NCBI GenBank assembly: GCA_025060415.1 | Contig: JANXBT010000001.1 | Coordinates: 36,313-68,312, forward strand | Reading direction: 5' to 3' | Length of the DNA: 32,000 nucleotides | Source of the DNA: Candidatus Bipolaricaulota bacterium | GTDB lineage: Bacteria; Bipolaricaulota; Bipolaricaulia; Bipolaricaulales; Bipolaricaulaceae | Shown here: positions 9,198 to 29,727 of the stretch, piece after piece | Numbering within the stretch: the stretch's first letter is position 1 | Layout: each line of letters opens with the position of its first letter | Translations under genes and position numbers: made by a program | Notes under the pieces: generated by a model | Told to the model about the DNA's origin: nothing | Database searches by the model: none | The model's input: only the letters and a program-made list of their open reading frames with translations

Positions 9198-9701
9198 ATG
9201 AAGGAGCACAACCCGTGGGCTAGCCTGCGCTTCGGCCCGGGCTGGGAGGAACAGGAGGCCGTCCTCCTCTGGAAGCGCATCGTCGGGGAGAACCTCGCCC
9301 GGCTGGCCCGGCCCCTGTACGTAGAGGACGGGGTCCTCCACCTGGCGGTGGCCAGCCCGGTGGTGGCCAACGAGCTGCGCTTCTGGAAAAAGGAGCTCCT
9401 GCAAAAGCTGGACCAGCACGCCCCCAGGAGCAAGGTCCGCGACCTCCGCTTTCACCTCGCCCCTTTGGCCGAAAGCGCGGCGCCCCCGACCGCGCCCGGG
9501 CCAGCGGAGTGGAACCGCGCGGAGGAGGCCATCCCCGCCGCGCTCCCCCGGGAGCTTCGGACCCGGCTGGTGCGGCTCTTGGCTTGGGCCCTGGCCCAGG
9601 AGGCCGGGATCCTGCGGGGAGGGGGGCGGCGCTGCTCCGCCTGCGGCGTGGCCTTCCTCGCCGAGGGCGATCTTTGCCCCCTCTGCCGCCTGCACCTCTG
9701 A
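9198..9701 (+). CDS. dciA: DUF721/DciA-family protein with C-terminal CxxC...CxxC zinc ribbon
   Basis: 167 aa. The N-terminal ~85 aa (WKRIVGENLARLARPLYVEDGVLHLAVASPVVANELRFWKKELLQKL) fits the DUF721 (COG5512) pattern. C-terminus is RRCSACGVAFLAEGDLCPLCRL. Weak RBS. Confidence 0.7.
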   Translation: MKEHNPWASLRFGPGWEEQEAVLLWKRIVGENLARLARPLYVEDGVLHLAVASPVVANELRFWKKELLQKLDQHAPRSKVRDLRFHLAPLAESAAPPTAPGPAEWNRAEEAIPAALPRELRTRLVRLLAWALAQEAGILRGGGRRCSACGVAFLAEGDLCPLCRLHL

Positions 9702-9757
9702 TCCTTGCTGAAAAACCGGGCTCCGGGTATGGTTCGCGTCCTTTGGGGGTGGCAGCC

Positions 9758-11690: not shown

Positions 11691-12458
11691 ATGGAGAAGG
11701 AGCGATACCTCAACACCTCGCTAGCGAAAGCCCTACGGGTTTTCGAGTTGTTCAACGGGGTGGAGGGGGGCTTGAGCCTATCGGAGATCGCCAGCCGCAT
11801 GGGGGCGCGTCCGGGGAGCATTTATCCCATCGTCTACACGCTACAAAAATTCGGTTATCTTGAGCGGGATGCGGAGACCAAGAAGTATCGGCTGGGCCTG
11901 CGCATTTTGGCTTTAGCCAACCAAATTTTGTCTTCTTTGGACGTTCGCGAGAAAGCCAAGCCTGTGCTGAAGCGCCTTGCGCGTGAGCTTGAGGTGAACG
12001 CACATCTTGCGGTCCTCTACGAGGGCGAGGTCTTATACTTGGATCGGGAGGAAGCTGCGCCCAGCGTGGTGATCCCTTCGGTGATTGGACGGCGGGTTCC
12101 CCCGCATTGCACCGCTTTGGGCAAGGTCTTGTTGGCTTACAGCCCGGAAGCTCTGGAGGGGTTTTTGGCCAAGGGATCCCTTCCTGCGCTTACCCCCAAC
12201 ACTATTACCAATCCGGAACTTTTGCGACGGGAGTTGGAACGGGTACGCCAGCAAGGTTATGCAATCGACTGGGAGGAATTTCACGAGGGCAACATCTGTG
12301 TGGCCGCTCCCGTGCGCAATTATCGAGGAAAGGTGGTGGCAGCGATCTCAGTTTCCTTGGCCAAGGTCCGCCTTACGCACACTCCGTTAGATAGTTTTGT
12401 GCAAGCCGTCACAAAGGGGGCGCAGGAAGTTTCGCTAGAAATGGGGTATCGCTCCTAG
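11691..12458 (+). CDS. IclR-family transcriptional regulator (KdgR-like)
   Basis: 255 aa. N-terminal wHTH (SLAKALRVFELF...LSLSEIASRMGARPGSIYPIVYTLQKFGYLERD) and C-terminal IclR effector domain (GNICVAAPVRNYRGKVVAAISVS). TGTATAAT lies at 11672-11679, just upstream. Confidence 0.9.
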   Translation: MEKERYLNTSLAKALRVFELFNGVEGGLSLSEIASRMGARPGSIYPIVYTLQKFGYLERDAETKKYRLGLRILALANQILSSLDVREKAKPVLKRLARELEVNAHLAVLYEGEVLYLDREEAAPSVVIPSVIGRRVPPHCTALGKVLLAYSPEALEGFLAKGSLPALTPNTITNPELLRRELERVRQQGYAIDWEEFHEGNICVAAPVRNYRGKVVAAISVSLAKVRLTHTPLDSFVQAVTKGAQEVSLEMGYRS

Positions 12459-12511
12459 AGCTCAGTCCTATTGGTCTTCGCCTTAAACGGTGAGGGTTTG
12501 GGGGGACAGGC

Positions 12512-12540
12512 TTGACGCCCCGGGTTTTTAATGGTATAAT
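12512..12540 (+). promoter_or_regulatory. strong sigma70-type promoter of the ABC transporter operon
   Basis: TTGACG (12512-12517), a 17-nt spacer, then TATAAT (12535-12540), with an extended -10 TG (TGGTATAAT). Confidence 0.65.
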
Positions 12541-12541
12541 A

Positions 12542-12553
12542 GTTTTGCAAAAC
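12542..12553. promoter_or_regulatory. perfect 12-bp palindrome GTTTTGCAAAAC, candidate IclR operator
   Basis: The sequence is its own reverse complement. It begins 2 nt after the -10 hexamer and so covers the expected transcription start. Confidence 0.5.
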
Positions 12554-12577
12554 AGCTAAATTGCTGGGAGGTGGGTG

Positions 12578-13909
12578 ATGAACCGCGTAAAGAGGTTCTG
12601 GTTGTTTTTAGCATTCGTTACTTTTGCTGTCCTAGGTAGTGCACAAAAGGTTACCATCGTCCTTTCCAACTGGCACTTGGTTGAACCGCACTGGGAGAAG
12701 TCCATCAAGGAAGCGGTAGCTGAGTTTATGCGCCGCAACCCTGATATCGAGGTCGTTTTAGACTACGTTTCGTACGCCGAGAAGGAAACCAAGTATATGA
12801 CCGCAATCGAGGCTGGGGTCGGGCCTGACGTCATGCACCTCGGTCCCGCGGAGATCTCGTTTGGCTTGTTTGCTAGCCGCGGATACTTCTATGATCTTAC
12901 CCCCTTCATCGCTCGGGAGGAGCCAGGCTTCTTGGACGCATGGTACCCCGCGGTGGTTCAGGCCCTCACGTACAACGGCAAGATCTACGCGTTGGGCAAC
13001 AACTATCAGCCTATGGTCCTTATGTGGAACAAACGCCTCTTCGCTGAGGCTGGGCTCGATCCTGAAAAGCCACCGGCCACGTGGGATGAGTTCCTTGCTT
13101 ACGCGAAGGCCCTGACCCGGGATCGCGATGGGGATGGGCGCATCGACACCTGGGGGTTTGGCACTGTGGGGCGCGTGGATCCCGGCTTCCAGCTTCGTTT
13201 CACCCCCGTGCTTTATAGCTTTGGAGCCGACTATTTGACTCCCGATCTGCGGTGCGCCGCCATCAACAGCCCTGCCGCCAAAGAAGCGGTGAAGTTCTGG
13301 GTGGAGCTCTACACCGTTCACGGAGTGATCCCTCCGGGCGTGACCGACATGAGCCCCGGCAAGGTGCGGGAGCAATTCGCGGCGGAAAAAATTGCGATGA
13401 AGATCACCTCGGCTTGGAACTTGCCCATCGTGCGGACCCTCCGTCCGGAGCTCCCTTGGGCGGAGATCATCGGTGTGGCCCCCATACCCGTGAAAAGGGG
13501 CCTGGATCCTGAATACCGTACCACCGCCTTCCTCAGCTACTACGCGATGAACCGCAACACCAAGCATCCTGAGGCCGCTTGGCGCCTGCTGAAGTTCCTG
13601 ACAAGCAAAGAGGCTCAGGAGAAATGGTTCCGGGATGCCTACGTGCTCTCGGCGCGTCGGGATGTGTCGGAGCAATATGAGCCTCTCCTGGCCGATCCCT
13701 ACGCTCGGGCGATCGCTGCGGCGCTCCCCACGGCCAAGATGGTGCCTATGATCCCGGAGTGGCCGCAGATTATCGAGGCCATCAATGTGGCGGTGCAGAA
13801 AGGGTTCATCGGCGAGCCCATCGATCGGGCCTGGGCTGAGGCTTATCGTAAGATCAACGAGATCCTGGAGCCTTATCGCCCGCGGGGCGCGGCTTGTCCG
13901 CCCTACTAA
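12578..13909 (+). CDS. ABC transporter extracellular solute-binding protein, family 1 (CUT1 sugar/oligosaccharide type)
   Basis: 443 aa with a signal peptide (MNRVKRFWLFLAFVTFAVLGSAQK) and no lipobox Cys. Overall MalE/UgpB-like pattern. GGAGGTG lies 4 nt upstream of ATG 12578, whereas the track start GTG 12575 is too close to the SD. Confidence 0.9.
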   Translation: MNRVKRFWLFLAFVTFAVLGSAQKVTIVLSNWHLVEPHWEKSIKEAVAEFMRRNPDIEVVLDYVSYAEKETKYMTAIEAGVGPDVMHLGPAEISFGLFASRGYFYDLTPFIAREEPGFLDAWYPAVVQALTYNGKIYALGNNYQPMVLMWNKRLFAEAGLDPEKPPATWDEFLAYAKALTRDRDGDGRIDTWGFGTVGRVDPGFQLRFTPVLYSFGADYLTPDLRCAAINSPAAKEAVKFWVELYTVHGVIPPGVTDMSPGKVREQFAAEKIAMKITSAWNLPIVRTLRPELPWAEIIGVAPIPVKRGLDPEYRTTAFLSYYAMNRNTKHPEAAWRLLKFLTSKEAQEKWFRDAYVLSARRDVSEQYEPLLADPYARAIAAALPTAKMVPMIPEWPQIIEAINVAVQKGFIGEPIDRAWAEAYRKINEILEPYRPRGAACPPY

Positions 13910-13935
13910 AGACGCTGACCGAAAGGCGAAAGGAA

Positions 13936-13968
13936 AGAGGGGCTGGCTCGTCTCAGGCCAGCCCCTCT
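13936..13968 (+). other. intercistronic stem-loop between the binding-protein and permease genes
   Basis: AGAGGGGCTGGC (13936-13947) pairs perfectly with GCCAGCCCCTCT (13957-13968) across a 9-nt loop. No U-tract follows on the + strand (TGCTTAAAAAATC). Confidence 0.5.
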
Positions 13969-13993
13969 GCTTAAAAAATCTAGGTTCGGGAAC

Positions 13994-14866
13994 ATGAAAA
14001 CCAAACAGCGCTCGGTCGATTTCACGGGGTACTGGTTTATCTTGCCGTGCTTTCTCTTGCTGTTGGGTGTGCTGGGTTTTCCCATGGTCATGGCTGTGCT
14101 CAATAGCTTTGCCCCTATTTGGACTAAAGGTCTATCCAATTTCACTCTCGCTTATTATCGAAAACTCTTCAATGATCCGATTTTCTTCAACTCGCTGCTG
14201 CGTACGGTCTACTTTGTCGGAGCTACGGTGGCCTTGCATCTTGTTTTGGGGCTTTTGGTGGCCTTGGCCTTGAACAGCGCTATTCGAGCGCGGCGGTTCT
14301 TCCGTGTGGTGGCGATTTTGCCTTGGACGGTGCCTGACGTCATCGCTGGTTTGGTTTGGGCCTGCATGTACGATCCCTTAAGCGGGCTGTTGAATGACGC
14401 GCTGCATCGTCTTGGGTTGATCGCTTCCCCGGTGGAATGGCTGGCGAACCCGCGGCTGGTGATGCCTAGCGTGATTTTGGCGGATGTATGGCGGGGGTAT
14501 CCGTTCGTCATGCTCGTGCTCCTGGCGGGGCTTCAAGCCATTCCTCGGGAACAGTACGAAGCGGCCAAAGTGGATGGGGCTTCGGCCCTGCACGAGTTCC
14601 TTTACATCACTCTTCCTAACCTGAAACCCCTGATCGCGATCGCCACTATTCTAGACATCATTTGGCAGACCCGTCGTTTTGGGCTGATTTGGGTTATGAC
14701 CGAAGGAGGGCCGGCACGGGCCACGGAGATTCTTTCTGTGTTGGCGTACCGGCAATATTTTAAGTTCTTTAATTTCGAGTACGCTTCGGCCATCTCCGTG
14801 GTCTTGGCGTTGATTTTGCTTGCGATTGGGATCCCTTATATTCGGGCGATATCCCGAAGGATATGA
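13994..14866 (+). CDS. sugar ABC transporter permease (MalF/UgpA-like)
   Basis: 290 aa, about six hydrophobic helices, EAA loop EQYEAAKVDGASALHEFLYITLPNLKP. Confidence 0.9.
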   Translation: MKTKQRSVDFTGYWFILPCFLLLLGVLGFPMVMAVLNSFAPIWTKGLSNFTLAYYRKLFNDPIFFNSLLRTVYFVGATVALHLVLGLLVALALNSAIRARRFFRVVAILPWTVPDVIAGLVWACMYDPLSGLLNDALHRLGLIASPVEWLANPRLVMPSVILADVWRGYPFVMLVLLAGLQAIPREQYEAAKVDGASALHEFLYITLPNLKPLIAIATILDIIWQTRRFGLIWVMTEGGPARATEILSVLAYRQYFKFFNFEYASAISVVLALILLAIGIPYIRAISRRI

Positions 14867-15705
14867 ACATGGCGATGCGCGCGCTGTTGATTCGGGGAGG
14901 CGTTTACTTGTTCCTCTTTTTCATCCTGGTCTTCAACTTGACGCCTTTCTTTTGGATGCTTTCCACTTCTCTAAAAACTGATGCCGAGGTCCACGCCATT
15001 CCCCCCACGTGGTGGCCACGGCAGCCCACCCTGGAAGAGGGGTACAAAAAAGTTCTGATGTGGACGAACTTCCCGCGTTATTTCCTGAACAGCACCTTGG
15101 TTTCCCTGAGCGCCGCCTTTATCTCTACCCTTGTGGGCGCCTTAGCTGGGTACGGCTTTTCCCGCTTTTATTTCCCTGGGCGCAGCTTTCTGATCGGAAT
15201 ATTGCTCGCTTCTCAGATGTTGCCCGGCGTTCTCTTGGTGGGCCCGTACTTCAAGATGCTCGCAAAAATCGGCTTGTACGACAGCCACTTAGGCTTAATC
15301 TTGGCTTTCTCCACGCTCACGCTCCCGTTTAGTGCATGGATGCTGAAAGGCTTTATCGATACGGTTCCGCATGAATTGGACGAAGCCGCTTTGCTCGACG
15401 GATGCACCCGGTTGCACGCGTTCATTCGTGTGATCTTCCCTCTAATCACCCCGGGCATGGTGGCCACTGTGATCTTTGCGTTTTTGCTGGCTTGGGGCGA
15501 TCTATTGTGGGCGCTCTGTTTGACCACCACGGATTCCATGGCCACGGTGACCCTTGGGCTAAGCCGGCTCGTCACGCAATTCCGCGTTATTTGGCCGCAA
15601 TTGATGGCGGGATCGGTGATCGCTGCTTTTCCGCCCATGCTCCTTTACTTGTTTTTGCAGAAATACTTGGTTCGAGGGTTGACGGGCGGGGCGGTCAAGG
15701 AGTGA
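14863..15705 (+). CDS. sugar ABC transporter permease (MalG/UgpE-like)
   Basis: 280 aa, EAA loop ELDEAALLDGCTRLHAFIRVIFPLITPG. ATGA overlap with the upstream permease gene. Confidence 0.9.
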   Translation: MNMAMRALLIRGGVYLFLFFILVFNLTPFFWMLSTSLKTDAEVHAIPPTWWPRQPTLEEGYKKVLMWTNFPRYFLNSTLVSLSAAFISTLVGALAGYGFSRFYFPGRSFLIGILLASQMLPGVLLVGPYFKMLAKIGLYDSHLGLILAFSTLTLPFSAWMLKGFIDTVPHELDEAALLDGCTRLHAFIRVIFPLITPGMVATVIFAFLLAWGDLLWALCLTTTDSMATVTLGLSRLVTQFRVIWPQLMAGSVIAAFPPMLLYLFLQKYLVRGLTGGAVKE

Positions 15706-15714
15706 CGGGGGTGA

Positions 15715-16467
15715 ATGTTCATGCGGCTTGAGGGGAAGGTTGCGCTCGTCACAGGAGCTAGCCGAGGCATAGGAAGGGCTATCGCTCTGGCATTGGCTAA
15801 AGAGGGATGTGACGTGGTCCTCGTGGACTTGGATGAGCCCGCTGCCCAACGCGTAGCGCGGGAGGTGGAAACCCTGGGAAGGAGAGCGCTTCCGGTGAAA
15901 GCAAACGTTGCTTCCTTGGCCGACGTTCAACGAGCGGTTGCTTTGACCGTGGAAAAATTTGGAAGACTTGACATCCTCGTGAACAACGCGGGGATTATTA
16001 AGCGGGGTACGCTCGAAGATCATAGTGATGCGGATTGGGAACTCGTGATCTCCGTCAACCTGCGCGGGACTTACTATTTTTCCCGTGAGGCCGCGAAGAT
16101 CATGAAACGCCAAGGATGGGGACGCATTATTAACATTTCCTCCGTAGCCGGAAAAATTGGAGATATTACCTCAGCGCCCAGCTATGGTCCCTCCAAAGCA
16201 GCTGTGAATGCCCTGACCAAGTCGCTGGCCAGGGAGCTTGCCCCCTTTGGGATCACCGTGAACGCGGTTGCTCCTCATGCCATCGAGACGGAAATGACGG
16301 CCGAGTGGTCGGAAGAACGAAGGCGGGCCTTAATCGCACAAATTCCTTTGGGGCGCATGGGGAAGCCCGAAGAAGTAGCAGCGGCTGTGGTTTTCTTGGC
16401 GTCCCCGGAGGCCTCCTTCATTACGGGGGAGATCCTCGATGTGAACGGGGGGTATCTCATGGACTGA
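15715..16467 (+). CDS. classical SDR oxidoreductase (FabG/KduD-like), substrate unknown
   Basis: 250 aa. TGASRGIG, NNAG, and catalytic S...YGPSK. The start could be ATG 15721. Confidence 0.85.
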   Translation: MFMRLEGKVALVTGASRGIGRAIALALAKEGCDVVLVDLDEPAAQRVAREVETLGRRALPVKANVASLADVQRAVALTVEKFGRLDILVNNAGIIKRGTLEDHSDADWELVISVNLRGTYYFSREAAKIMKRQGWGRIINISSVAGKIGDITSAPSYGPSKAAVNALTKSLARELAPFGITVNAVAPHAIETEMTAEWSEERRRALIAQIPLGRMGKPEEVAAAVVFLASPEASFITGEILDVNGGYLMD

Positions 16468-16482
16468 GGTAGGTGAGGCCAG

Positions 16483-17289
16483 ATGCGCGGGTTGCGGGGG
16501 AAGGTTGCGGTGATTACTGGCGGCGGTGGAGTCCTTTGCTCGCAGATCGCGGAGTGTTTGGCTGAGGAGGGCGTGCGCATTGCCTTGTTGGACATCGCCG
16601 AGGAGAAAACGCAAGAGGCTCTACGGCGGGTGTTAGCCAAAGGAGCCGAGGGCTTGGCTTTTAGAGCGAGCGTTCTTTCCCGTGAGGATCTCATACGGGT
16701 AGCTGAACAGGTTTTGGCCTCCTTCGGTCGCGTCGATTTCCTCATTAACGGAGCCGGCGGGAATCACCCGCGCGGCACAGTTACCGACGAGGTTTCCTTT
16801 TTTGATCTTCCCGAGGATGGCGTGCGGTTCGTTTTCGACCTGAACTTTTGGGGCACATTTCTGCCTTCGCAAGTTTTCGGGAAGATTATGGCTCATCAAA
16901 AAGAAGGGGTGATTCTCAACATCGCCTCCATGAGCTCGTTCCGACCGCTGACGCGGGTCCCGGCCTACTCTGCGGCCAAAGCTGCAGTAGCCAATTTCAC
17001 CCAGTGGCTGGCCGTTTACTTGGCGCAGGAGTATTCTCCTCGGATTCGCGTGGTTGCCATCGCGCCAGGTTTTTTCTTGACCGAGCAGAACAAATATCTG
17101 CTCTTAGGTCCGCAAGGGGAGCTGACGGAACGCGGTCAGAGGATCCTCGCCCACACCCCTATGGGGCGGTTCGGGGCTCCAGTCGATCTTTGCGGTGCCG
17201 TGAAGTGGTTACTGTCGGACGAAGCGGCCTTTGTGACCGGAATTGTGCTCCCCGTGGACGGCGGGTTTTCCGCGTACGGCGGAGTTTAG
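16483..17289 (+). CDS. SDR oxidoreductase, UxuB/YjmF-like subfamily (possible hexuronate/mannonate-type oxidoreductase)
   Basis: 268 aa. TGGGGVLC glycine-rich loop, INGAGGNHP, YSAAK. From memory, the INGAGGN...FFDL...DLNFxGTFLPSQVF pattern resembles SDR-type D-mannonate oxidoreductases. Not verified by search. Confidence 0.75.
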   Translation: MRGLRGKVAVITGGGGVLCSQIAECLAEEGVRIALLDIAEEKTQEALRRVLAKGAEGLAFRASVLSREDLIRVAEQVLASFGRVDFLINGAGGNHPRGTVTDEVSFFDLPEDGVRFVFDLNFWGTFLPSQVFGKIMAHQKEGVILNIASMSSFRPLTRVPAYSAAKAAVANFTQWLAVYLAQEYSPRIRVVAIAPGFFLTEQNKYLLLGPQGELTERGQRILAHTPMGRFGAPVDLCGAVKWLLSDEAAFVTGIVLPVDGGFSAYGGV

Positions 17290-17290
17290 G

Positions 17291-18286
17291 CTAACAAGGG
17301 CGAAACCGCTCGGCCAACGCGCGGTTCACCAGCCCAACGGGCAAGAGGCCGTGAAGCGCGCGCCCGATGTCTTCTGCCAGTTTTTTACGCAGTTCCACCA
17401 AAGAGTCCTCGGAGTACCAAGCGGCGTGCGGTGACCAGAGCACTTGGGGCAAGGTCCGCAGCGGGTCTTTGGGATCAGGGGGTTCCGGATCGCTTACGTC
17501 TAAACAAGCACCCGCAAGGGTTCCGGCCTTAAGGGCCTGGAACAAAGCGTCTTTGTCGACAATTGCCCCGCGTGCCGTGTTGATTAAACACGCTGTGGGT
17601 TTCATCTTGGCCAGCGCCTCGGCGTTGAGTAAATGGCGCGTTTCCGGGGTGAGCGGGACGTGGATTGAAAGGAAATCGCTTTCGCGAAGCAAGCGTTCCC
17701 AATCAACACGCTCCACGCCTTCCGCAGCGAAACTTTCGTCGGACACATACGGATCGTAAGCGATAACCTTCAGCCCAAAAGCTTTCGCCTTACGCGCTAC
17801 GAAGCGGGCAATCTTTCCAAAACCCAAGAGGCCAAGTACCTGACCGCGCAGACGGCGCATGGGACGCCCTGTCTTCCAATCCCATTCCCCTTTGCGAATC
17901 TCTTCCGTGTAGTGGACTACTCTTCGCGCCCAAGCTAGGAGAAAAGCCATAACATGGTCCGAGACCTCCTCTTCGCAGTAAGACGGCACATTGACTACGG
18001 CAATCCCCCGTTCCGTGGCAGCCGGCACATCGATGTTGTCTACGCCGATGCCGTACCGGCCTATTACCTTGCATCGGTTCAAACCCCAAATGACGTCCCG
18101 TGTTATGGGGGCGTACTGCGAGATAAGGGCGTCGGCTTCCCGTGCTACAGCAAGGACTTCCTCAGGGGTTCGGCATTGCGCAGGCACCACTTGTGCGTTC
18201 CACTGCCTTAGCGTGTTTTCCTCGATGGATAAATCCGGATAGTTGTAGTCCGTAACTATCACCGTCCACCGCATCGGTCCAGCCAT
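17291..18286 (-). CDS. D-isomer-specific 2-hydroxyacid dehydrogenase family (CtBP/GhrB/2-ketogluconate reductase-like)
   Basis: 331 aa. NAD site GLLGFGKIARFVARKA, INTARGAIVD, and a catalytic HAAW region. The start could be ATG 18274. The stop lies 1 nt from the convergent SDR stop. Confidence 0.85.
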   Translation of the reverse strand: MAGPMRWTVIVTDYNYPDLSIEENTLRQWNAQVVPAQCRTPEEVLAVAREADALISQYAPITRDVIWGLNRCKVIGRYGIGVDNIDVPAATERGIAVVNVPSYCEEEVSDHVMAFLLAWARRVVHYTEEIRKGEWDWKTGRPMRRLRGQVLGLLGFGKIARFVARKAKAFGLKVIAYDPYVSDESFAAEGVERVDWERLLRESDFLSIHVPLTPETRHLLNAEALAKMKPTACLINTARGAIVDKDALFQALKAGTLAGACLDVSDPEPPDPKDPLRTLPQVLWSPHAAWYSEDSLVELRKKLAEDIGRALHGLLPVGLVNRALAERFRPC

Positions 18287-18297
18287 GGTGTGGGCGC

Positions 18298-18326
18298 TTT
18301 ATACTTTAAAAGGCCTGTTTTGTCAA
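18298..18326 (-). promoter_or_regulatory. consensus-like promoter for the 2-hydroxyacid dehydrogenase gene
   Basis: Read on the minus strand: TTGACA (18326..18321), a 17-nt spacer, then TATAAA (18303..18298). The ATG at 18286 would leave only a few nt of leader and there is no SD. Confidence 0.55.
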
Positions 18327-18345
18327 GGGCAAAAGGAGGCTAGAA

Positions 18346-19113
18346 GTGTTGCGGCTTGACTTGACGGGAAAAGTCGCCATAGTGACCGGGGCGGGCGGGG
18401 GGCTGGGGCGGGCAATGGCCCTTGGTCTGGCGCAAGCCGGGGCCGCTGTGGTTCTGGTGGGCCGTTCTGGGTTGGGTCTTGAGGAAACCCTCCGAGAAAT
18501 CCAGGCCTTGGGTCGTCCGGGCTTGGCCCTGCGCGCTGATGTTGCCATCCGAAATGAGACGAAGCGTGTGGTCCAAACCGCGCTGGAACGCTTTTCCCGC
18601 GTGGACATCGTGGTGAATGCCGCCGGGGTTAACCGGCGCATCCCCTCGCTCGAGGTGCGTGAAGAGGACTGGGATTGGATTCTGGGGGTAAACCTTAAAG
18701 GGACGTTCTTTATGTGTCAAGCCGCGGGAGAGGTGATGCTGCGCCAGAGAGCAGGGAGCATTATTAATGTCGCCTCGCTTCTTTCCGAAGTAGGGATACC
18801 CACGCTGGCTCCGTACGCGGCTTCGAAAGCAGGGGTGGTCGGGCTCACCCGCGTATTGGCCGCGGAATGGGGGCCTTATGGGGTCCGGGTGAACGCGATA
18901 GGGCCGGGCTACTTCCGTACACGGATGACGGAGCCTTTGTTCAGCGACCCCCACTGGGTGGCAAGGCTTCTGCAGCAAGTACCATTAGGGCGTGCCGGGA
19001 TACCTGAGGATTTGGTGGGAATCACGGTTTTTCTGGCCTCCGACGCGTCGGCCTACCTCACCGGACAAGTGATCTACGTGGATGGCGGCTACTTATGCGC
19101 CCGCCCGGCCTAG
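18346..19113 (+). CDS. SDR oxidoreductase, KduD/gluconate-5-dehydrogenase-like
   Basis: 255 aa. TGAGGGLG, NAAG, YAASK, and a W..ILGVNLKGTFF pattern. AAGGAGG lies 6 nt upstream of GTG 18346. Confidence 0.85.
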   Translation: MLRLDLTGKVAIVTGAGGGLGRAMALGLAQAGAAVVLVGRSGLGLEETLREIQALGRPGLALRADVAIRNETKRVVQTALERFSRVDIVVNAAGVNRRIPSLEVREEDWDWILGVNLKGTFFMCQAAGEVMLRQRAGSIINVASLLSEVGIPTLAPYAASKAGVVGLTRVLAAEWGPYGVRVNAIGPGYFRTRMTEPLFSDPHWVARLLQQVPLGRAGIPEDLVGITVFLASDASAYLTGQVIYVDGGYLCARPA

Positions 19114-19136
19114 GTTTTTTCTAAAACAAACAAAGA

Positions 19137-19164
19137 TTGACTAAAACGTAGAATGGGATATAAT
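19137..19164 (+). promoter_or_regulatory. candidate promoter upstream of (or within the annotated 5' end of) eda
   Basis: TTGACT (19137-19142), a 16-nt spacer, then TATAAT (19159-19164). The -10 lies downstream of ATG 19153 but upstream of GAGGAGG (19171-19177) and the in-frame TTG 19183. Confidence 0.45.
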
Positions 19165-19827
19165 GCTTTTGAGGAGGGAAAGTTGCGCGAGGTATTGGCG
19201 GACGAGGAGATCAAGCGTACAGGCGCTATCGGGATAATTCGTATACGTACGGCAGAGGACCTGGTAAGAATAGCCGAGGCCCTCCACGCTGGGGGGCTTT
19301 TATGCATCGAGATCACGATGAACACCCCGGGGGCGTTGCAGGCCATCGAACAGGCCCGGGAACGCCTCCCCACCGTGGTGCTGGGGGCCGGCACGGTCCT
19401 CGACGGGGTGACCGCGCGGGAGGCGGTTCTGGCCGGAGCCCAGTTCTTGGTGACCCCGACCGTCAGGCTGGACGTCCTAGAAGTGGCTCATAGGTACGGC
19501 ATCCCTGCTATCATCGGCGCGATGACCCCCACGGAGATCCTCACCGCTTGGGAGGCCGGGGCCACCATGGTCAAGGTTTTCCCCGCTTCGGTCCTCGGGC
19601 CGCGGTACCTCCAAGAGGTGCGCGGGCCTTTGCCCCAAATCCCGCTCGTGCCCACGGGCGGCATCACAGCCGAAAACGCGGCGGAATTCATTCGCGCTGG
19701 GGCCGTAGCTGTCTGCGCCGGGTCCTGGCTTATTGATAAACAGGCCATCGCCGAGGGGCGATACGAGGTGCTCACGGAGCGCGCACGTCGCCTGGTGGAG
19801 GCGGTCCGGAAGGCCCGCGAATCTTGA
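19153..19827 (+). CDS. eda: 2-dehydro-3-deoxyphosphogluconate (KDPG) / KHG aldolase
   Basis: Pattern IGIIRIRTAEDLVRIAEALHAGGLLCIEITMNTPGAL...GAGTV...FLVTP...G...VKVFPA...PTGGI is typical of the Eda family, including the Schiff-base Lys context VKVFP. The true start may be TTG 19183 (SD-supported). Confidence 0.85.
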   Translation: MGYNAFEEGKLREVLADEEIKRTGAIGIIRIRTAEDLVRIAEALHAGGLLCIEITMNTPGALQAIEQARERLPTVVLGAGTVLDGVTAREAVLAGAQFLVTPTVRLDVLEVAHRYGIPAIIGAMTPTEILTAWEAGATMVKVFPASVLGPRYLQEVRGPLPQIPLVPTGGITAENAAEFIRAGAVAVCAGSWLIDKQAIAEGRYEVLTERARRLVEAVRKARES

Positions 19828-19844
19828 ATTCCCAAGGAGGCGGT

Positions 19845-20834
19845 ATGGGGTACGACCTTGTGACCTTCGGGGAGACGATGATCCGGCTTTCCCCTCCCCA
19901 CTTCCAGCGCTTGGAGCAGGCCACGTCCTTCGACGTCAACGTCGGGGGGGCCGAGCTCAACGTGGCCGTGTCCGCCCAGAGGTTAGGGCTTCGCTGCGCC
20001 TACGTAACCCGGCTCACCGATAACCCCTTGGGCCGCATGATCGCCAACAAGGCCCGCGAGCACGGTGTGGACGTTTCTCACATCCTCTGGACCAAAGAGG
20101 ATCGGGTTGGGCTTTACTTCGTGGAGTTCGGCGCCAGCCCCCGCGCCAGTTCCGTCCTCTACGACCGGGCCCACTCCGCAATGGCGAGGATCAAGCCCGG
20201 CGAGGTGAACTGGGATCGCGTGTTCGAGGGAGCCCGGGCGTTCCACACCACGGGGATCACCCCCGCCCTCTCCCCTTCCGCCGCGGAGGCCACCAAAGAG
20301 GCGGTGCGAAAGGCCAAGGAAAAAGGGGTGTTGGTCTCCCTCGACCTCAACTACCGTGCGCGCCTGTGGAGCCCTGAGGAAGCCCGGCGGGTGATGACCG
20401 AGCTCGTCTCCCAGGCGGACATCCTCATCACCACCGAAGAGGATGCGGAACGGGTGTTCGGGGTGAAGGAAGGGTCCTTTGAGAAGATGGCGGAACGGCT
20501 GGGGCAGATGTTTGGCAACCTGAAGGTTGTGGCCGTCACGATCCGGGAAACGCCCTCCGTGTGGCGCAACACGTGGACGGCCTTGGCCTACAGCGCAGGC
20601 CGGATCCTTCGCGGCCCGGTTTTTGACGTGGAAATTGTGGACCGCGTGGGAGCAGGCGACGCCTTCGCCGGCGGATTCCTCTACGGCTACCTCACCAAAG
20701 ACGTGGAGGCCGGGCTCCAATACGGGGTGGCCCTCTCCGCGCTGAAGCAGACCAACCCCGGGGACCTCGTCTGGGCCACCAAAGAGGAGTGCGAACGGAT
20801 CCTGGCCGGAGCGGGGTTGCGGATCGTGCGCTGA
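19845..20834 (+). CDS. kdgK: 2-dehydro-3-deoxygluconokinase (PfkB family)
   Basis: 329 aa. GGAELNVAV, the [15 protein letters not shown] pattern and [20 protein letters not shown] lies 4 nt upstream of ATG 19845, so the track start at 19824 (TTG) is rejected. Confidence 0.85.
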
Positions 20835-20844
20835 GGAGAAGGGG

Positions 20845-21588
20845 ATGAGGATCGTTCGCTTTGGCCGGGGAAGCTGGGGTGTGGTGGAAGGGGAAGTGGT
20901 GCGCGTCACCCGTGGGCCAGGCGGGAGCTTCACAAGGAAGCGCCTCCCCCTCGCGGAGGTGCGGCTCCTCCCCCCCACCAAGCCCACCAAGATCGTCTGT
21001 GTGGGGCGCAACTACCGCCGGCACGCGCAGGAGATGGGCGAGGAGGTGCCCAAGGAGCCCGGGCTCTTCCTCAAGGCCCCGAATGCGCTGGCGGCGCCGG
21101 GCTCGATCCTCCCCTATCCTTCCTTCACGCACAGCCTTCACTACGAGGGCGAGCTCGCGGTGGTGGTGGGCAAAAGGATGCGCCGCGTCTCCGAGGACAA
21201 AGCCCTCGCGTATGTTCTTGGCTACACATGCGCCCTGGACCTCACCGCCCGCGATGTGCAAAAGACCGATCTCCAATGGATTCGCGCCAAGTCCGCCGAT
21301 GGGTTTTGCCCCCTTGGCCCCTGGGTGGAGACGGACGTCGCCCCGTTTGACTTGCGCTTGCGCACCTTCGTGAACGGCGAGGTGCGCCAGGATGCCCGCA
21401 CTTCGGCCATGATCTTTTCCATTCCCTTCCTGCTCGCGTACGTCAGCTCGTTCATGACGCTCGAGCCCGGGGATGTCCTCCTCACGGGCACCCCGGAGGG
21501 GGTGGGCGAGCTGAAGCCGGGCGATGAGGTGGCCGTAGAGATCGAGGGCATCGGGAGGCTTTCCGTTCGCGTCGCCCCCGCCTCCTGA
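20845..21588 (+). CDS. fumarylacetoacetate hydrolase (FAH) family protein (hydratase/decarboxylase/diketo-acid hydrolase type)
   Basis: 247 aa. [43 protein letters not shown] and [13 protein letters not shown] are hallmark FAH-domain blocks. AGGAGAAGGGG sits upstream. Confidence 0.85.
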
Positions 21589-21628: not shown

Positions 21629-22525
21629 ATGGGCAGGTGGCTTTTCTGCCTCGGTTTGCTCCTCGTGGCCTGCGCGGGCGCTGCGGAGCCGGTACGGGTT
21701 TACGTGGGCGTCTACGTGCTGAACCTGGGGAAGTTCGAGCTCGCCACCGGGGCGTACACGGTGGACTTCTACCTGTCCCTGCGGGCGGAGCGGCCCATCA
21801 CCATGGACGAGTTCGAGTTCATGAACGGGCGTGCGGCCACCATCGATCGGCTCATCGATACGCCGACGGAGAAGTTCTACCGCATCCAGGCCAACCTCTC
21901 GCAAAATTTGGATTTGCGCCGCTACCCCTTCGATGAGCATCTCTTGACCATCGAGATCGAAGACAAACGCCGCACGGTCAACGAGCTCGTCTACGTGGTG
22001 GACGAAAAGGCCTGTGGGGTTGACCCCGGCGTGATCGTGGTGGGCTGGCGCCTCGCGGGCTGGGAGGCCACGGTGACCACGCACGAGTACACGATCTACG
22101 AGGAAACCTACTCGCGGTTCGTGTTCGGCCTCCGTATCCGGAGGGTTACGCTCAACGCCGTGATCAAATCGTTCCTCCCCATCGTCTGCATGCTCCTGGT
22201 GGGGTTCCTTTCCCTCCTCCTTACGCCGGACAAGGTCACCACACGGCTCTCCCTGAACATCTCCACGCTCCTGGGGGCCGTGATGTTCCACGTGAACCTG
22301 ACCTCCTCCATCCCGCCCGTGGGCTACCTCACCCTGGCCGACCGGGTCATGATCGCCACCTATTTGATCCTGGTCCTGATCCTGCTGAGCGGGGTGGCGA
22401 TCCTCCGCTGGGCGGAGCGGGAGGAGAAGAAAGCCCAAGTCAAGCGCATCTATCACCAGGCCCTGGCGGCGATCCCCGTGCTCACCGTGGTCCTCTACGC
22501 CCTGGTGTTCCTGCTCCCGAGCTAG
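21629..22525 (+). CDS. prokaryotic pentameric ligand-gated ion channel (Cys-loop receptor) homologue
   Basis: 298 aa: signal peptide, a ~150-aa beta-rich ectodomain (VYVGVYVLNLGKFELATGAYTVDFYLSL; YPFDEHLLTIEIE, cf. the FPFD loop), then four TM segments. M1 is LNAVIKSFLPIVCMLLVGFL with the conserved Pro. M2 is RLSLNISTLLGAVMF with a Leu at the 9' position. M3 and M4 are joined by a short linker. Motif-level call only. Confidence 0.65.
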   Translation: MGRWLFCLGLLLVACAGAAEPVRVYVGVYVLNLGKFELATGAYTVDFYLSLRAERPITMDEFEFMNGRAATIDRLIDTPTEKFYRIQANLSQNLDLRRYPFDEHLLTIEIEDKRRTVNELVYVVDEKACGVDPGVIVVGWRLAGWEATVTTHEYTIYEETYSRFVFGLRIRRVTLNAVIKSFLPIVCMLLVGFLSLLLTPDKVTTRLSLNISTLLGAVMFHVNLTSSIPPVGYLTLADRVMIATYLILVLILLSGVAILRWAEREEKKAQVKRIYHQALAAIPVLTVVLYALVFLLPS

Positions 22526-23631
22526 GGGCGGAAGGCCACCTTGATCCCCCGCCGGGTGAGGACCGTGCGCAGGGCGGTCCGGTAGTCCGCGAGCGGGAAG
22601 GTGTGGGTGACGATTTTCTCCAGGCCCTCCGCATCGCGCAGCGCCGTCAGAGCGTGGTGGAAGTCCTGGGCGCTGTAGGCGTAGGTGCCGAGCACGCGGA
22701 TCCCGCGGAACCAAAGGGGGGAAAGGTCGAGCCGGGACCGACCGGGCGCCCCGAGGAGGAGCACGGTCCCTCCCTCCCGGACGGCCCACAGGGCTTGGTC
22801 CAGGCTGGTGGGGCTTCCGGCGGCGTCGATGACCAGCGGGAAGCCGCCGCGCCAGGCCGGCGGGCCCAGCGGCGCGCGGTAGCTCCGCGCCCCCTGCGGC
22901 GGGGCCGCCTCCCAGGGGGAGGCGTGCACCCCCTTGCTCCCCAAGGCCCGCGCCATCTCGGCTTGCTGCCGGTGGCGGGCCACGACGTGGATGTCCCGGT
23001 GGCCGAACCACCGGAGGGCGGCCACGGCCAAAAGGCCAAGCGTTCCGGCCCCAAGGACGAGCACGGGATGGGCTTTGTCCATGGAGAGGAGGCGCAGCCC
23101 GCGGAGCACCACGGCCAAGGGTTCGGCCAAAAGCCCGCGTTCCGTGGGCATCTGGGGGGGCAAGGGGTGCACCCGATCCGGATGCACCACGATCCGTTCG
23201 CCCCAGCCGCCGGGCAAATCCCGGTGGTACCCAAGCATCCCCGGGGCAAGGCCCCCTTCCGCCACGTTTTGGCAGAGGGCCTCCTCGCCCTGGGCGCAGG
23301 CCCAGCAGGGGGGAAGGCCGCGCTCGCGGCAAGCCAGAAGGGGGTTGATGGCGGCCCGCACGCCCCCCACCTCCGCCACGATCTCGTGCCCCAGCACGGC
23401 GGGGAACGAGAAGAAGGGGGCCAAGCGGGGCGAGCTTTTCCCAAAAAGAAGGGCGAGATCGGATCCGCAGATCCCCGAAAGGAGCACCCGGCCCTTCTCC
23501 CACCCGGGCGGGGGCTCGGGCTCCGGAAGCTCGCGCAAGCGCAGGGGCAAAAGGCCGAAGGGCGTGTGCTTTCCCAGGGCGCGCGCCGCGAGGTACCGGG
23601 GGACGGAGGCCGTGTAGACGAGGGCCTTCAT
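22522..23631 (-). CDS. zinc-dependent MDR alcohol/polyol dehydrogenase family
   Basis: 369 aa. GICGSD, GHE, a structural-Zn Cys cluster (C..ERGLPPCWACAQGEEALC) and the Rossmann motif VLGAGTLGL. ATGA overlap with the upstream aldolase-like gene. Confidence 0.85.
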   Translation of the reverse strand: MKALVYTASVPRYLAARALGKHTPFGLLPLRLRELPEPEPPPGWEKGRVLLSGICGSDLALLFGKSSPRLAPFFSFPAVLGHEIVAEVGGVRAAINPLLACRERGLPPCWACAQGEEALCQNVAEGGLAPGMLGYHRDLPGGWGERIVVHPDRVHPLPPQMPTERGLLAEPLAVVLRGLRLLSMDKAHPVLVLGAGTLGLLAVAALRWFGHRDIHVVARHRQQAEMARALGSKGVHASPWEAAPPQGARSYRAPLGPPAWRGGFPLVIDAAGSPTSLDQALWAVREGGTVLLLGAPGRSRLDLSPLWFRGIRVLGTYAYSAQDFHHALTALRDAEGLEKIVTHTFPLADYRTALRTVLTRRGIKVAFRP

Positions 23632-24692
23632 GTCATGGGCACCTGGCGGACGAGCCGCCCCTCGATGCGGCGAAGGATGTCCCGCAGGGAGCGGCCGGTG
23701 ATGGTGAGGCCGTGGTTTTTGAGGCCGATCACGGCGCCCGCGGGGTCGGGGGCTTGGCGCACGAGCTCGGCCACGGACCGGGCGAGCTCATAGCTTCCGC
23801 AGGGGTAGTGGGCCTGGGTGGCGGGCACCCCGTCCATCCAGGCGTGCACGTGGATGATGGCCCCCACCTCGGGGTGCTCCCGGTAGATCATCCAGTGCTC
23901 GATGGCGTCCACGGAAACCCGACGGGGCTCGACGTGCGGGGGCACGGAGAGGACGATGCAGTTCTCCTGGGGATCGTAATCCTTGACGAGGAGGATGTCC
24001 CGGCCGATCACGCGCAGGTTGGCCTTGTCCACCCCGGAGGCCGACATCCAAAAGCGCTTGGCGTCCTTGCGCACGGAGAGGTTGCCGTAGGAGAGGCCGC
24101 CGATGCCGTAGAGCCTCTGCACGTGGCGGAAGTCCTCGGGCGGCAGGATCCGATCGAGGGGGAAAGGGGCGGGTAGGAGGTTCCAGGAGGCCAAAACCCT
24201 CCCGGCTTCGGCCAGCTCGCGGGTGAGCGCGTCCCCCTCCCAAAGCTCCGGCTCCAGGTCCGGCTCGAACCGGTTTTTGATGACCAGGGTGGCCGAGGCC
24301 ATGGGGTGGATCCGCGCCACAAGGCGCGGGAAAAAGCCCTCGCCCTCCGCCTCGCTGTAGTGCCCCAGATCCAGGGTGAAGAAGTGGGCTTCCCTCCCGG
24401 GGAGGTACACGAGGAGCATGTTGGCCAGGGTGCGCACGAGGTAGGGGTACATGGCCGACACCGGATCGGCCGGGAGCTCCGGGGCCTCCAGGAGCGAGAG
24501 CACGAAGGTGGCCTGGGCCCGGCGCCGGTAGGGCCGGGGGTTGGCCGTGGACACGAAGTTCAGCACCAGGCGGGGCGCGGGGTCCTGCGGGGCGTAGCGG
24601 TAGCCCTGCTCCTCCAGGGCCTGGGGCAATCCCGTAGCGAGGGGCCTCAGCCCGGGCGTAGGCTCGCCGTGGCAGGCAAACGTGAGGGCCAT
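23628..24692 (-). CDS. class II aldolase/adducin-domain protein with an uncharacterised ~190-aa N-terminal domain
   Basis: 354 aa. The C-terminal half has aldolase_II-like blocks (GNLSVR, WMSASGVDK, DAIEHWMIY, GAIIHVHAW, NHGLTITG). I could not assign the N-terminal half. GAGGTGG lies 5 nt upstream of ATG 24692, so the track start 24779 is rejected. Confidence 0.7.
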   Translation of the reverse strand: MALTFACHGEPTPGLRPLATGLPQALEEQGYRYAPQDPAPRLVLNFVSTANPRPYRRRAQATFVLSLLEAPELPADPVSAMYPYLVRTLANMLLVYLPGREAHFFTLDLGHYSEAEGEGFFPRLVARIHPMASATLVIKNRFEPDLEPELWEGDALTRELAEAGRVLASWNLLPAPFPLDRILPPEDFRHVQRLYGIGGLSYGNLSVRKDAKRFWMSASGVDKANLRVIGRDILLVKDYDPQENCIVLSVPPHVEPRRVSVDAIEHWMIYREHPEVGAIIHVHAWMDGVPATQAHYPCGSYELARSVAELVRQAPDPAGAVIGLKNHGLTITGRSLRDILRRIEGRLVRQVPMT

Positions 24693-24781
24693 GCAGACCA
24701 CCTCGAAACGCAGGATATCCCAAGGGCACGGGCGGGGCCAGGGTTGTGCGGGAGGGCCGCAGAGGGGAACATTGCCCATCC

Positions 24782-29233: not shown

Positions 29234-29234
29234 G

Positions 29235-29648: not shown

Positions 29649-29727
29649 GTTCCTTTCTCACCCCCGGGGCCGAAACGCGGCCCGTTTCGTCGTCCATGAT
29701 ACGGGGGGCCCGGGGGCGGGACCAGGC

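Follow-up and report, generated by a model that had tools for sequence, protein, structure and literature searches.

How might a bacterium convert a sugar acid into 2-keto-3-deoxygluconate (KDG) using a gene cluster that encodes dehydrogenases and the enzymes that consume KDG, but no lyase, isomerase or dehydratase? This question is raised by a 32,000-nucleotide stretch of DNA (hereafter called the window; contig JANXBT010000001.1, positions 36,313 to 68,312) from a metagenome-assembled genome (MAG) of a Candidatus Bipolaricaulota bacterium. The cluster carries, in order, genes for an IclR-family regulator, a CUT1-type importer, two short-chain dehydrogenases/reductases (SDR1 and SDR2), a divergently oriented D-isomer-specific 2-hydroxyacid dehydrogenase (2HADH), a third short-chain enzyme (SDR3), Eda (the aldolase acting on KDPG, or 2-keto-3-deoxy-6-phosphogluconate), the KDG kinase KdgK, and a protein of the FAH family. 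This cluster is real, widely conserved and unstudied, and it resides in uncultured bacteria. The account that we tentatively favor, with somewhat less than even confidence, is that it constitutes a module for uptake and inversion, mobile by horizontal transfer, which passes its product to a KDG lower pathway encoded locally, and thereby forms a non-orthologous variant of the L-gulonate scheme.

Gene identities in the window were assigned by searches of Pfam, NCBIfam and the Protein Data Bank (PDB). These agree with the gene set named in an earlier sequence-only reading, which comprised the importer, three SDRs, the divergent 2HADH, Eda, KdgK and the FAH protein. The same reading had found no lyase, glycosidase, isomerase or dehydratase in the cluster. 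Indeed, none was revealed by Pfam scans of the open reading frames (ORFs) of the whole window, and tblastn searches with E. coli UxuA, UxaA, UxaC, KduI, Edd, DgoD and RspA, two haloarchaeal UxuA proteins and one further UxaC gave no match there. Its description of an uncharacterized sugar-acid module that ends in KdgK and Eda and lacks the textbook dehydratase or isomerase is supported, and this lack extends to 57 related loci, save for one unrelated DgoD-like gene.

These loci were gathered through the importer's solute-binding protein (SBP) by a single scan of genomes, a single scan of metagenomes and nine look-ups of the context around SBP homologues. The window proteins were mapped onto them and duplicates were removed before counting, which left approximately 25 dereplicated loci with denominators that vary by feature. 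The cluster recurs in about 25 independent loci from Bipolaricaulota, Chloroflexota and Thermotogota MAGs, and thus its arrangement is not a chance juxtaposition. The conserved unit comprises the SBP with its two permeases and the pair SDR1 and SDR2. A C2-acting 2HADH or Ldh_2 enzyme, KdgK and Eda usually come next. In the Chloroflexota type the order is IclR-SBP-permease-permease-SDR1-SDR2-2HADH, with KdgK and Eda following in either order (Anaerolineales CP070811.1, which is locus L007, and loci L012, L033 and L046). The four dehydrogenases and the FAH protein had been read as a single route, and this view fails. Only SDR1, SDR2 and the C2-acting enzyme travel with the transporter from phylum to phylum, whereas SDR3 is found in 5 of 14 dereplicated loci and the FAH protein in 2 of 10, both exclusively in loci of the Bipolaricaulota type.

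Of the dehydrogenases in the window, SDR2 alone scores above the cut-off of a specific curated model (NF006132, 'D-mannonate oxidoreductase', 365 bits versus 281). Its best PDB match (254 bits) is 4wuv, which we take to be H. influenzae UxuB from the proven L-gulonate pathway. Present in 16 of 21 loci, SDR2 is an SDR-type fructuronate reductase, or D-mannonate oxidoreductase, of the UxuB/YjmF family. The gene set had been thought to fit no pathway that could be named, but it does resemble one, since SDR2 is a member of the SDR-type family that supplies fructuronate reductase to the L-gulonate and glucuronate routes (PMC5788505). It is 53-60% identical to haloarchaeal SDRs sited between uxaC and uxuA and 48-54% identical to Bacillus and Paenibacillus SDRs adjoining uxuA, and the window copy is 50-55% identical to SDRs of cultured organisms that adjoin a mannonate dehydratase (UxuA or an MR/MLE-family enzyme). 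The gene contexts of these homologues are uxaC-SDR-uxuA on haloarchaeal plasmids, kdgK-ZnADH-eda-uxuA-SDR in B. velezensis (ZnADH, zinc-dependent alcohol dehydrogenase), GH115-SDR-uxuA in Paenibacillus, and MR/MLE enzyme-ZnADH-SDR in Bosea. In an identity matrix, the cluster SDR2 proteins match the dehydratase-linked SDRs at 46-60%, compared with 54-62% between the Bipolaricaulota and Chloroflexota cluster copies. Thus the cluster SDR2 proteins do not form a separate subfamily or specificity group. Among the related loci, L012 carries a second SDR2 copy that adjoins the tagaturonate/fructuronate epimerase UxaE, and in L030 SDR2 is replaced by a mannitol-dehydrogenase (MDH)-family protein whose best model is fructuronate reductase.

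An SDR1 gene comes after the permease genes in 24 of 25 dereplicated loci, and its product is 54-90% identical to that of the window. Its PDB matches are FabG-like proteins only, its identity to proteins of sequenced plasmids is at most 48%, and the named homologues among the 120 matches listed all come from uncultured MAGs. With at least 54% identity within the clusters, SDR1 forms a clade of its own. Both SDR1 and SDR2 carry an Asp residue (after strand beta-2 in SDR1) that is typical of NAD-dependent SDRs, which fits a coupled oxidation and reduction. We propose that SDR1 would oxidize C5 of the imported acid or, alternatively, act as a parallel keto-uronate reductase. It is a candidate for a non-homologous entry enzyme that takes the place of a GulD/RspB-type Zn-ADH or of UxaC. 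The UxaC queries found no match, and the sole Zn-ADH of the window (22522-23631, minus strand) has 26% identity to RspB and shows no synteny in the Bipolaricaulaceae MAG L004 (GCA_049972715.1). Two SDR1 homologues at 85-87% identity (P0128 and P0130) are labelled as 'Candidatus Bathyarchaeia archaeon' MAGs, which means either that contigs were mis-binned or that the module moved between domains very recently.

The four hexonates L-gulonate, L-idonate, D-mannonate and D-gluconate are distinguished by their configuration at C2 and C5 alone. We hypothesize that the importer takes up a monosaccharide-sized sugar acid, most plausibly an L-hexonate of the L-gulonate or L-idonate type, or a 5-keto or 2-keto acid such as D-fructuronate, D-tagaturonate or 2-keto-L-gulonate. 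SDR1 would then use NAD+ to oxidize C5 and yield D-fructuronate, which SDR2 would reduce with NADH to D-mannonate, such that C5 is inverted with no net redox change overall. The 2HADH would act at C2, either to admit 2-keto-aldonates or to interconvert C2 epimers, a role that in other lineages could fall to Ldh_2 or to a neighboring LarA-type hexonate epimerase. KDG would come from a dehydratase for mannonate or gluconate whose gene lies at another place in the genome. KdgK would then phosphorylate KDG, and Eda would cleave the product to pyruvate and glyceraldehyde-3-phosphate. The IclR protein would likely serve as a repressor responsive to KDG or to the substrate. The gene identities, the families of SDR2, KdgK and Eda, and the conservation and modularity of the cluster have been shown here, whereas the nature of the imported compound, the reactions of SDR1 and the 2HADH, and the existence of a distal dehydratase are our inference.

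The case for chemistry at C2 comes from the variety of enzymes at the third position. The 2HADH, for which no NCBIfam equivalog reaches its cut-off, is present in 11 of 16 loci. Loci L010 and L038 have Ldh_2 at its position, and L032 has, in addition to the 2HADH, a LarA-like protein that is best matched by the model 'nickel-dependent putative hexonate epimerase'. The LarA-like proteins of L032 (8142-9560) and L012 (5234-6571), which are of the nickel-pincer cofactor family and are encoded within or close to the cluster, score 119-188 bits on the hexonate epimerase model, for which the cut-off is 500. The L012 gene adjoins a 6-phosphogluconate dehydrogenase gene. That three unrelated C2-acting families share this position points to a hexonate with a C2 hydroxyl as an intermediate, and we propose that the 2HADH works on the C2 position of either a hexonate or a 2-keto-hexonate.

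A constant C2-acting third member (2HADH in 11 of 16 loci, Ldh_2 in two, and the LarA-like protein of L032) would also be explained by a route that makes no use of UxuA. D-mannonate from the C5 inversion would be turned into D-gluconate by a change at C2, which could be made by Ldh_2 and 2HADH with 2-keto-D-gluconate as intermediate or directly by a LarA-type epimerase. Subsequently, D-gluconate would be dehydrated by a gluconate dehydratase or by a promiscuous dihydroxy-acid dehydratase, and KdgK and Eda would complete the pathway. The presence of KdgK and Eda without GntK or Edd matches this semi-phosphorylative Entner-Doudoroff ending, and the unclustered dehydratase is accounted for because a housekeeping IlvD would never cluster. 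Moreover, D-specific 2HADHs yield the D-gluconate configuration at C2, as the enzymology of GhrB and TkrA demonstrates. We nevertheless judge this route improbable. Each locus has only half of the redox pair needed for inversion at C2, the 2HADH is not GhrB-like, and no gluconate dehydratase was found by tblastn in the window or the 57 loci. To our knowledge, IlvD promiscuity toward gluconate is known from Sulfolobus only, and is weak.

The lower pathway on which the proposed inversion module would converge is encoded in the cluster itself. Eda matches KDPG aldolases in the PDB and is present in 10 of the 12 loci with enough downstream sequence. KdgK is present in 7 of 12, where it is 42-88% identical to the window protein. 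Approximately half of the aligned residues of KdgK, as estimated from the alignment, are identical to those of 2afb, which was deposited as a 2-keto-3-deoxygluconate kinase and is presumably T. maritima TM0067. On models for KDG and 2-keto-3-deoxygalactonate kinases it scores 323 and 380 bits, both below the cut-offs. Thus the KDG kinase and KDPG aldolase called for by the L-gulonate or hexuronate-to-KDG pathway are both in place (KdgK with 269 bits to 2afb, and Eda with TIGR01182).

The cluster is composed of two units, a mobile one with the transporter, SDR1 and SDR2, and a more local one with the KDG lower pathway. Between phyla, the transporter, SDR1 and SDR2 are 54-74% identical, compared with only 33-45% for the 2HADH, KdgK and Eda. 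Base composition and promoter-like sites add to this contrast in defining the two-unit structure. In the window, the G+C content at third codon positions (GC3) is 0.61-0.73 from iclR through the SDR3 gene (0.61-0.76 if eda is included, 11691-19827), versus 0.86-0.96 in flanking genes, and it recovers through eda, kdgK and the FAH gene. The L004 genome shows the same dip (0.45-0.65 versus 0.75-0.84). These data suggest that the transporter and dehydrogenase module was acquired by an ancestor of the family and that its composition has yet to adjust to the host. Of the two promoter-like sites, each a consensus match only, one lies 35 nucleotides upstream of the SBP gene and the other overlaps the longest-ORF start of eda. 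The true start of eda is therefore probably a few codons downstream, and the second site suggests a separate eda-kdgK-FAH transcript. No inverted-repeat operators were found in three intergenic regions. The IclR protein scores 149 bits on the KdgR model NF011671 (cut-off 275), and its gene lies upstream of the SBP gene in L004, L007, L012, L027 and L039.

If an ordinary hexonate intermediate is formed, then where is the enzyme that dehydrates it? A mannonate dehydratase (UxuA or ManD), as the L-gulonate or hexuronate-to-KDG pathway requires, is absent from the window and from the cluster in the 57 loci. The only tblastn match in the 57 loci, many of which include 10 kb flanks, is a DgoD-like, enolase-superfamily gene (L023, 1746-2894) whose product is 50% identical to E. 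coli DgoD. It is located 7 kb upstream of the cluster, in another operon and beside a second CUT1 permease pair, in a locus whose SBP is 90% identical. This gene possibly represents a separate galactonate module that shares KdgK and Eda. Since the dehydratase gene of L023 belongs to an operon of its own, it is plausible that upper modules are dispersed and use KdgK and Eda in common. The alternative offered in the earlier reading, namely that the missing steps are encoded elsewhere, is the leading explanation. Genes between iclR and the SBP gene in L001 and L003 were also considered as the missing enzymes and were rejected, as their products are an amino-acid ABC system of the Liv type and a member of the creatininase family. 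According to Pfam, the unassigned neighboring ORFs of the related loci include no sugar-acid dehydratase. They encode regulators, other transporters, aldo-keto reductases (AKRs), FGGY and PfkB kinases, class II aldolases and a DUF4015 protein, together with a B12-dependent diol dehydratase of different chemistry.

Several observations weigh against the L-gulonate-like scheme. The distal dehydratase is an assumption, and the DNA searched comprises the window and the 57 loci. No UxuA, ManD, UxaA or IlvD/Edd homologue is encoded within the 32 kb window, and tblastn found no dehydratase within the cluster in any of the 57 loci. In contrast, a mannonate dehydratase lies beside the SDR2 homologue in every cultured-organism context examined. 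Since the generic enzymes KdgK and Eda are part of the cluster in 7 to 10 of 12 loci and the dehydratase never is, its absence is odd and constitutes a real anomaly. Regarding the first oxidation, SDR1 has no characterized close relative (identity of at most 48%), and the known L-hexonate 5-dehydrogenases are Zn-ADHs. We know of no precedent for this activity in the SDR1 clade, nor of CUT1 systems that import monomeric aldonates. Finally, the 2HADH is nearer to SerA and CtBP than to the 2-ketoaldonate reductases GhrB and TkrA.

Because the absence of a dehydratase is systematic, a route that needs none stays alive. In such a route, the imported compound would already be a 3-deoxy acid. [quoted passage not shown] L-KDGal or reduced DKI would be oxidized to 2,5-diketo-3-deoxygluconate and then reduced to KDG, in a 3-deoxy analogue of the L-gulonate inversion. 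The stereochemistry works, as L-KDGal and KDG differ at C5 only, and the diketo intermediate shares the C4-C6 end of fructuronate, so a UxuB-like SDR could reduce it. A pair consisting of an L-KDGal 5-dehydrogenase and a reductase has reportedly been described for 3,6-anhydro-L-galactose catabolism. The gene content is likewise favorable, in that neither the window nor the 57 loci have a dehydratase or isomerase gene inside the cluster or next to it (the L023 gene being 7 kb away), KdgK and Eda are regularly present, and the KduD-like SDR3 directly precedes eda-kdgK in Bipolaricaulota-type loci. By tblastn, KduI was found neither in the window nor in any locus, and Pfam scans of the window revealed no RpiB/LacAB-type DhuI domain. 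Furthermore, published assignments cross the UxuB-like and KduD/Gno-like classes if T. maritima uxaD is TM0441 (PDB 1vl8, a KduD/Gno-like SDR), as we presume. The uxaD gene is listed among the galacturonate-catabolism genes of T. maritima (PMC3750489), and the gene beside gntE in that locus is described as a fructuronate reductase (PMC6978723).

However, SDR2 falls within the diversity of UxuA-linked fructuronate reductases rather than in a distinct subfamily, and the presence of UxaE and a fructuronate-reductase-like MDH protein at neighboring positions speaks for hexuronate intermediates of the ordinary kind. A 2-keto-3-deoxy acid would leave no role for the C2-acting enzymes that recur in the loci (2HADH, Ldh_2 and LarA-like proteins). 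KdgF, PL, GH88 and GH105 proteins are also absent from every locus. With regard to an alginate route, lyase domains are missing from the window and loci, and no PDB match named DEH reductase is listed for SDR1, SDR2 or SDR3, any of which may nonetheless act on DEH. We consider this use of 3-deoxy acids unlikely. Similarly doubtful is the more general proposition that the cluster provides a route into KDG without any dehydratase or isomerase, be it through salvage by SDR1 and SDR2 independent of KduI and DhuI or through a C2-acting enzyme that replaces the chemistry of UxuA.

The importer has the components expected of a CUT1 system: a family-1 SBP (PF01547), two PF00528 permeases whose best matches are MalF, MalG and GlcTU, and a MalK/MsiK-type ATPase encoded 7 kb upstream. 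The cluster itself has no ATPase gene, and this MsiK-like protein, which is 95% identical and syntenic in L004 and L037, probably energizes the importer as a shared subunit. The N-terminus of the SBP resembles a signal peptide, with the ATG at 12578 as the probable true start. There are 170 SBP homologues with E <= 1e-30, and the best 120 of the 170 span 48-99% identity. All named homologues among these 120 come from uncultured MAGs, and identity to proteins of sequenced plasmids is at most 31%. In the related loci, permease 1 is 57-87% and permease 2 is 68-90% identical to the window proteins. The best PDB match of the SBP is 5ci5 (117 bits only), which we take to have tagatose bound. This structure was rejected as a guide to the ligand. 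A 74% identical orthologue, located with a 5ci5 sequence that was rebuilt from the alignment, lies in an SBP-permease-permease-SorC-PfkB-FGGY-class II fructose-/tagatose-bisphosphate aldolase context, a ketohexose-phosphate cluster unrelated to that of the window.

Close homologues of the SBP also occur in Chloroflexota in a different setting. Those of L008 (10001-14688) and L011 (10001-14742), at 54-55% identity, and a third at 52%, have no permeases after them. Instead, the genes that come next encode a sensor kinase of the HAMP-HisKA kind and a response regulator, and giant hybrid kinases with PAS/GAF domains surround them. The SBP ligand thus seems to serve Chloroflexota as an extracellular signal as well.

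CUT1 systems typically carry neutral sugars and polyols, and the conversion of L-gulonate through fructuronate to mannonate is the exact acid analogue of sorbitol and mannitol being converted to fructose. The module could accordingly be imagined as a polyol or neutral-ketose system akin to Rhodobacter smoEFGK-smoS-mtlK, with KdgK and Eda as mere neighbors. Locus L005, which carries only the transporter with SDR1 and SDR2, would suit this arrangement, as would L030, which pairs SDR1 with the MDH-family enzyme and a distant PfkB, and the AKR, FGGY and PfkB genes that recur upstream in five loci. We find this very unlikely, however, because Eda (10 of 12 loci) and KdgK (7 of 12) accompany the module in several gene orders and in three phyla, SDR2 belongs to a uronate-specific SDR family and not to the sorbitol or mannitol SDRs, and the SBP scores only 40 bits against the sorbitol-binding protein 4rya.

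The AKR genes just mentioned lie immediately upstream of the SBP gene in five otherwise different loci, and the window has none. The corresponding stretches are L002 3375-6139, L007 1856-6069, L039 4744-7289, L017 4672-7285 and L010 4249-6325. Their partners are either an FGGY kinase (with an aldehyde dehydrogenase in one case) or a class II aldolase and a PfkB kinase, and the set may be a second, linked sugar module.

Two further proteins of the window, SDR3 and the FAH protein, are lineage-specific passengers of the eda-kdgK unit. SDR3 lies outside the conserved core. Its best PDB match is 1vl8 (238 bits), deposited as gluconate 5-dehydrogenase and presumably Thermotoga TM0441. It scores lower (213 bits) against 4z9y, a KduD-type 2-deoxy-D-gluconate 3-dehydrogenase, and reaches 253 bits on TIGR01832 (cut-off 339). 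After strand beta-2 it carries a Gly-Arg motif that is typical of NADP use.

The FAH protein is probably co-transcribed with kdgK, given the 10-nucleotide gap between the genes, and is kept at this position within the family. The earlier reading hinted at hydrolysis of 2,4-diketo-3-deoxy acids, and characterized enzymes of this type are indeed detectable homologues (8gsr, 144 bits). One could envision a non-phosphorylative route in which an SDR oxidizes a 2-keto-3-deoxy acid at C4, the FAH protein releases pyruvate and glycerate or lactate, and the 2HADH handles the hydroxy acid. The protein is not recognizable as such a hydrolase, as it attains 156 bits on the diketo-rhamnonate hydrolase model NF053535 versus a cut-off of 500. 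It fares far better with HpaG/HpcE-type proteins. Its best relative is 2dfu (341 bits), deposited as a probable 2-hydroxyhepta-2,4-diene-1,7-dioate isomerase and presumably from Thermus thermophilus, and it scores 224 bits on the HpaG C-terminal model (cut-off 276). Furthermore, the protein is missing from all clusters of the Chloroflexota type, KdgK and Eda already provide a complete ending, and no lactonase or dehydratase domain for non-phosphorylative routes of the LRA5/LRA6 type is present in the window. Such a route is highly improbable. The FAH protein probably stands outside the conserved pathway, and we likewise rejected it as a cryptic dehydratase or as a diketo hydrolase of the pathway because it is conserved with the cluster in one lineage only.

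The features discussed above are collected in Table 1. The window has a G+C content of about 70%, and the presence of rnpA, lysS, mgsA, dnaA, dciA and thrS marks it as the dnaA region, and presumed origin, of a bacterial chromosome. The remaining ORFs with a Pfam match are housekeeping genes, and some ORFs have no match. In addition to the six genes above and the MsiK-like ATPase gene, they encode a PAP2 protein, an aminotransferase, a membrane protein resembling pentameric ligand-gated ion channels, the Zn-ADH, an MtnB-like fragment, DsbD, a DUF402 protein, RtcA and CoaX. A further 2.4 kb of the contig beyond the window holds a pyruvate kinase gene. From the aminotransferase gene to the membrane protein gene after that for FAH, the gene order is identical in L004.

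Table 1. Features of the sugar-acid cluster and associated elements in the window
Feature	Position	Strand	Supporting matches
MsiK/MalK-like ABC ATPase	4293-5495	-	PF00005, OB_MalK, TOBE_2
IclR-family regulator (KdgR/PcaR-like)	11691-12458	+	PF09339, PF01614
Promoter-like site TTGACG-17-TGgTATAAT	12512-12540	+	11/12 consensus matches, extended -10
CUT1 extracellular solute-binding protein (SBP)	12575-13909	+	PF01547, PF13416
ABC permease 1 (MalF/UgpA/GlcT-like)	13994-14866	+	PF00528
ABC permease 2 (MalG/GlcU-like)	14863-15705	+	PF00528; GlcU model 154 bits
SDR1, FabG-like classical SDR	15715-16467	+	PF13561, PF00106
SDR2, UxuB/YjmF family	16483-17289	+	NF006132 365 bits (cut-off 281)
2HADH, SerA/CtBP-like	17291-18286	-	PF02826, PF00389
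SDR3, KduD/Gno/UxaD-like	18346-19113	+	TIGR01832 253 bits (cut-off 339)
Promoter-like site TTGACT-16-TATAAT	19137-19164	+	11/12 consensus matches
Eda, KDPG/KHG aldolase	19153-19827	+	PF01081; TIGR01182 199 bits (cut-off 156)
KdgK, PfkB family	19824-20834	+	Best PDB match 2afb, 269 bits
FAH-family protein	20845-21588	+	PF01557 and PF10370 (Rv2993c-like N-terminal domain)

The membrane protein of 298 amino acids (21629-22525, plus strand) begins 40 nucleotides after the FAH gene and occupies the same place in L004 and L037 (80% identity). Its likeness to pentameric ligand-gated ion channels is weak and concerns their transmembrane part (PF02932, 26 bits; TIGR00860, 74 bits). Three further ORFs of the window stand out. 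The longest thrS ORF (9509-11668, 719 amino acids from a GTG at 9509) overlaps the dciA gene (9198-9701), and because threonyl-tRNA synthetase has 636 amino acids in L004, the true start is probably near 9760. The coaX ORF (28475-30202, minus strand) encodes 575 amino acids with a type III pantothenate kinase domain at residues 325-528 only, and an ORF of 383 amino acids (23628-24779, minus strand) has a partial class II aldolase/MtnB-like domain at residues 224-313 only. Both overlong ORFs may be fusions or have miscalled starts.

Published surveys of hot springs, subsurface fluids, anaerobic digesters and hypersaline sediments have reported Bipolaricaulota and Anaerolineae. MAGs of both groups commonly carry the module, whose proteins are annotated merely as 'FabG' or 'sugar ABC transporter', and we found nothing relevant in the literature on sugar-acid metabolism of Bipolaricaulota/Acetothermia. 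If its substrate were assigned, metabolic models of these phyla would gain a carbon source, and a function would be given to the new SDR1 clade and to an SBP family that provides Chloroflexota with a sensor input as well. Should the dehydratase simply be encoded elsewhere, then the module is a routine non-orthologous variant of the L-gulonate or hexuronate pathway. If it is truly missing, then the module represents a new way for carbon to enter the KDG/Entner-Doudoroff node. Salvage of lyase products without an isomerase would be one possibility, relevant to cross-feeding on pectin, alginate and extracellular polysaccharides, and a dehydratase-free route would be widespread in uncultured Bipolaricaulota and Chloroflexota.

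How, then, does the cluster compare with known systems? The fungal D-glucuronate route proceeds by a ketogluconate/idonate redox chain (PMC4870679, PMC5814732). Like this chain and that formed by E. coli IdnD and IdnO, the cluster uses NAD(P) oxidoreductases only, including a keto-hexonate reductase and an SDR-type 5-keto reductase, and would invert hexonates at C2 and C5. Bacterial 2-ketoaldonate reductases (TkrA/GhrB) are themselves of the 2HADH type. However, those chains end in D-gluconate and gluconokinase rather than KdgK and Eda, and the 2HADH of the cluster resembles SerA/CtBP rather than GhrB. Routes of the KduI/KduD type resemble the cluster in that SDR reductases feed KDG to KdgK and KdgA without a dehydratase, and SDR3 is KduD-like. 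In contrast to these routes, the cluster loci have no KduI, DhuI, KdgF, lyase or unsaturated glycuronidase, and SDR3 is a non-core protein that scores below the KduD cut-off. The haloarchaeal glucuronate isomerase pathway (UxaC-UxuB-UxuA-KdgK-KdgA) shares with the cluster an SDR2-family SDR and the KDG lower pathway. It differs in having UxaC and UxuA, such that entry is by an isomerase instead of a dehydrogenase.

The closest proven system is the L-gulonate pathway of H. influenzae, in which the TRAP transporter GulPQM supplies the substrate, GulD oxidizes L-gulonate at C5 to D-fructuronate, UxuB reduces this to D-mannonate, and UxuA, KdgK and KdgA complete the route (PMC5788505). The kdgK-ZnADH-eda-uxuA-SDR operon of B. 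velezensis encodes the same set of enzymes. Our cluster departs from these L-gulonate systems by its CUT1 ABC importer in place of a TRAP or MFS transporter, by a first dehydrogenase from the SDR1 clade in place of a Zn-ADH, by the additional C2-acting 2HADH, and by the absence of UxuA from the cluster in the window and the 57 loci. What it has in common with the H. influenzae system is SBP-dependent uptake of a sugar acid, a fructuronate reductase of the SDR2 family, clustered KdgK and Eda and, as proposed here, an oxidation and reduction pair that inverts C5.

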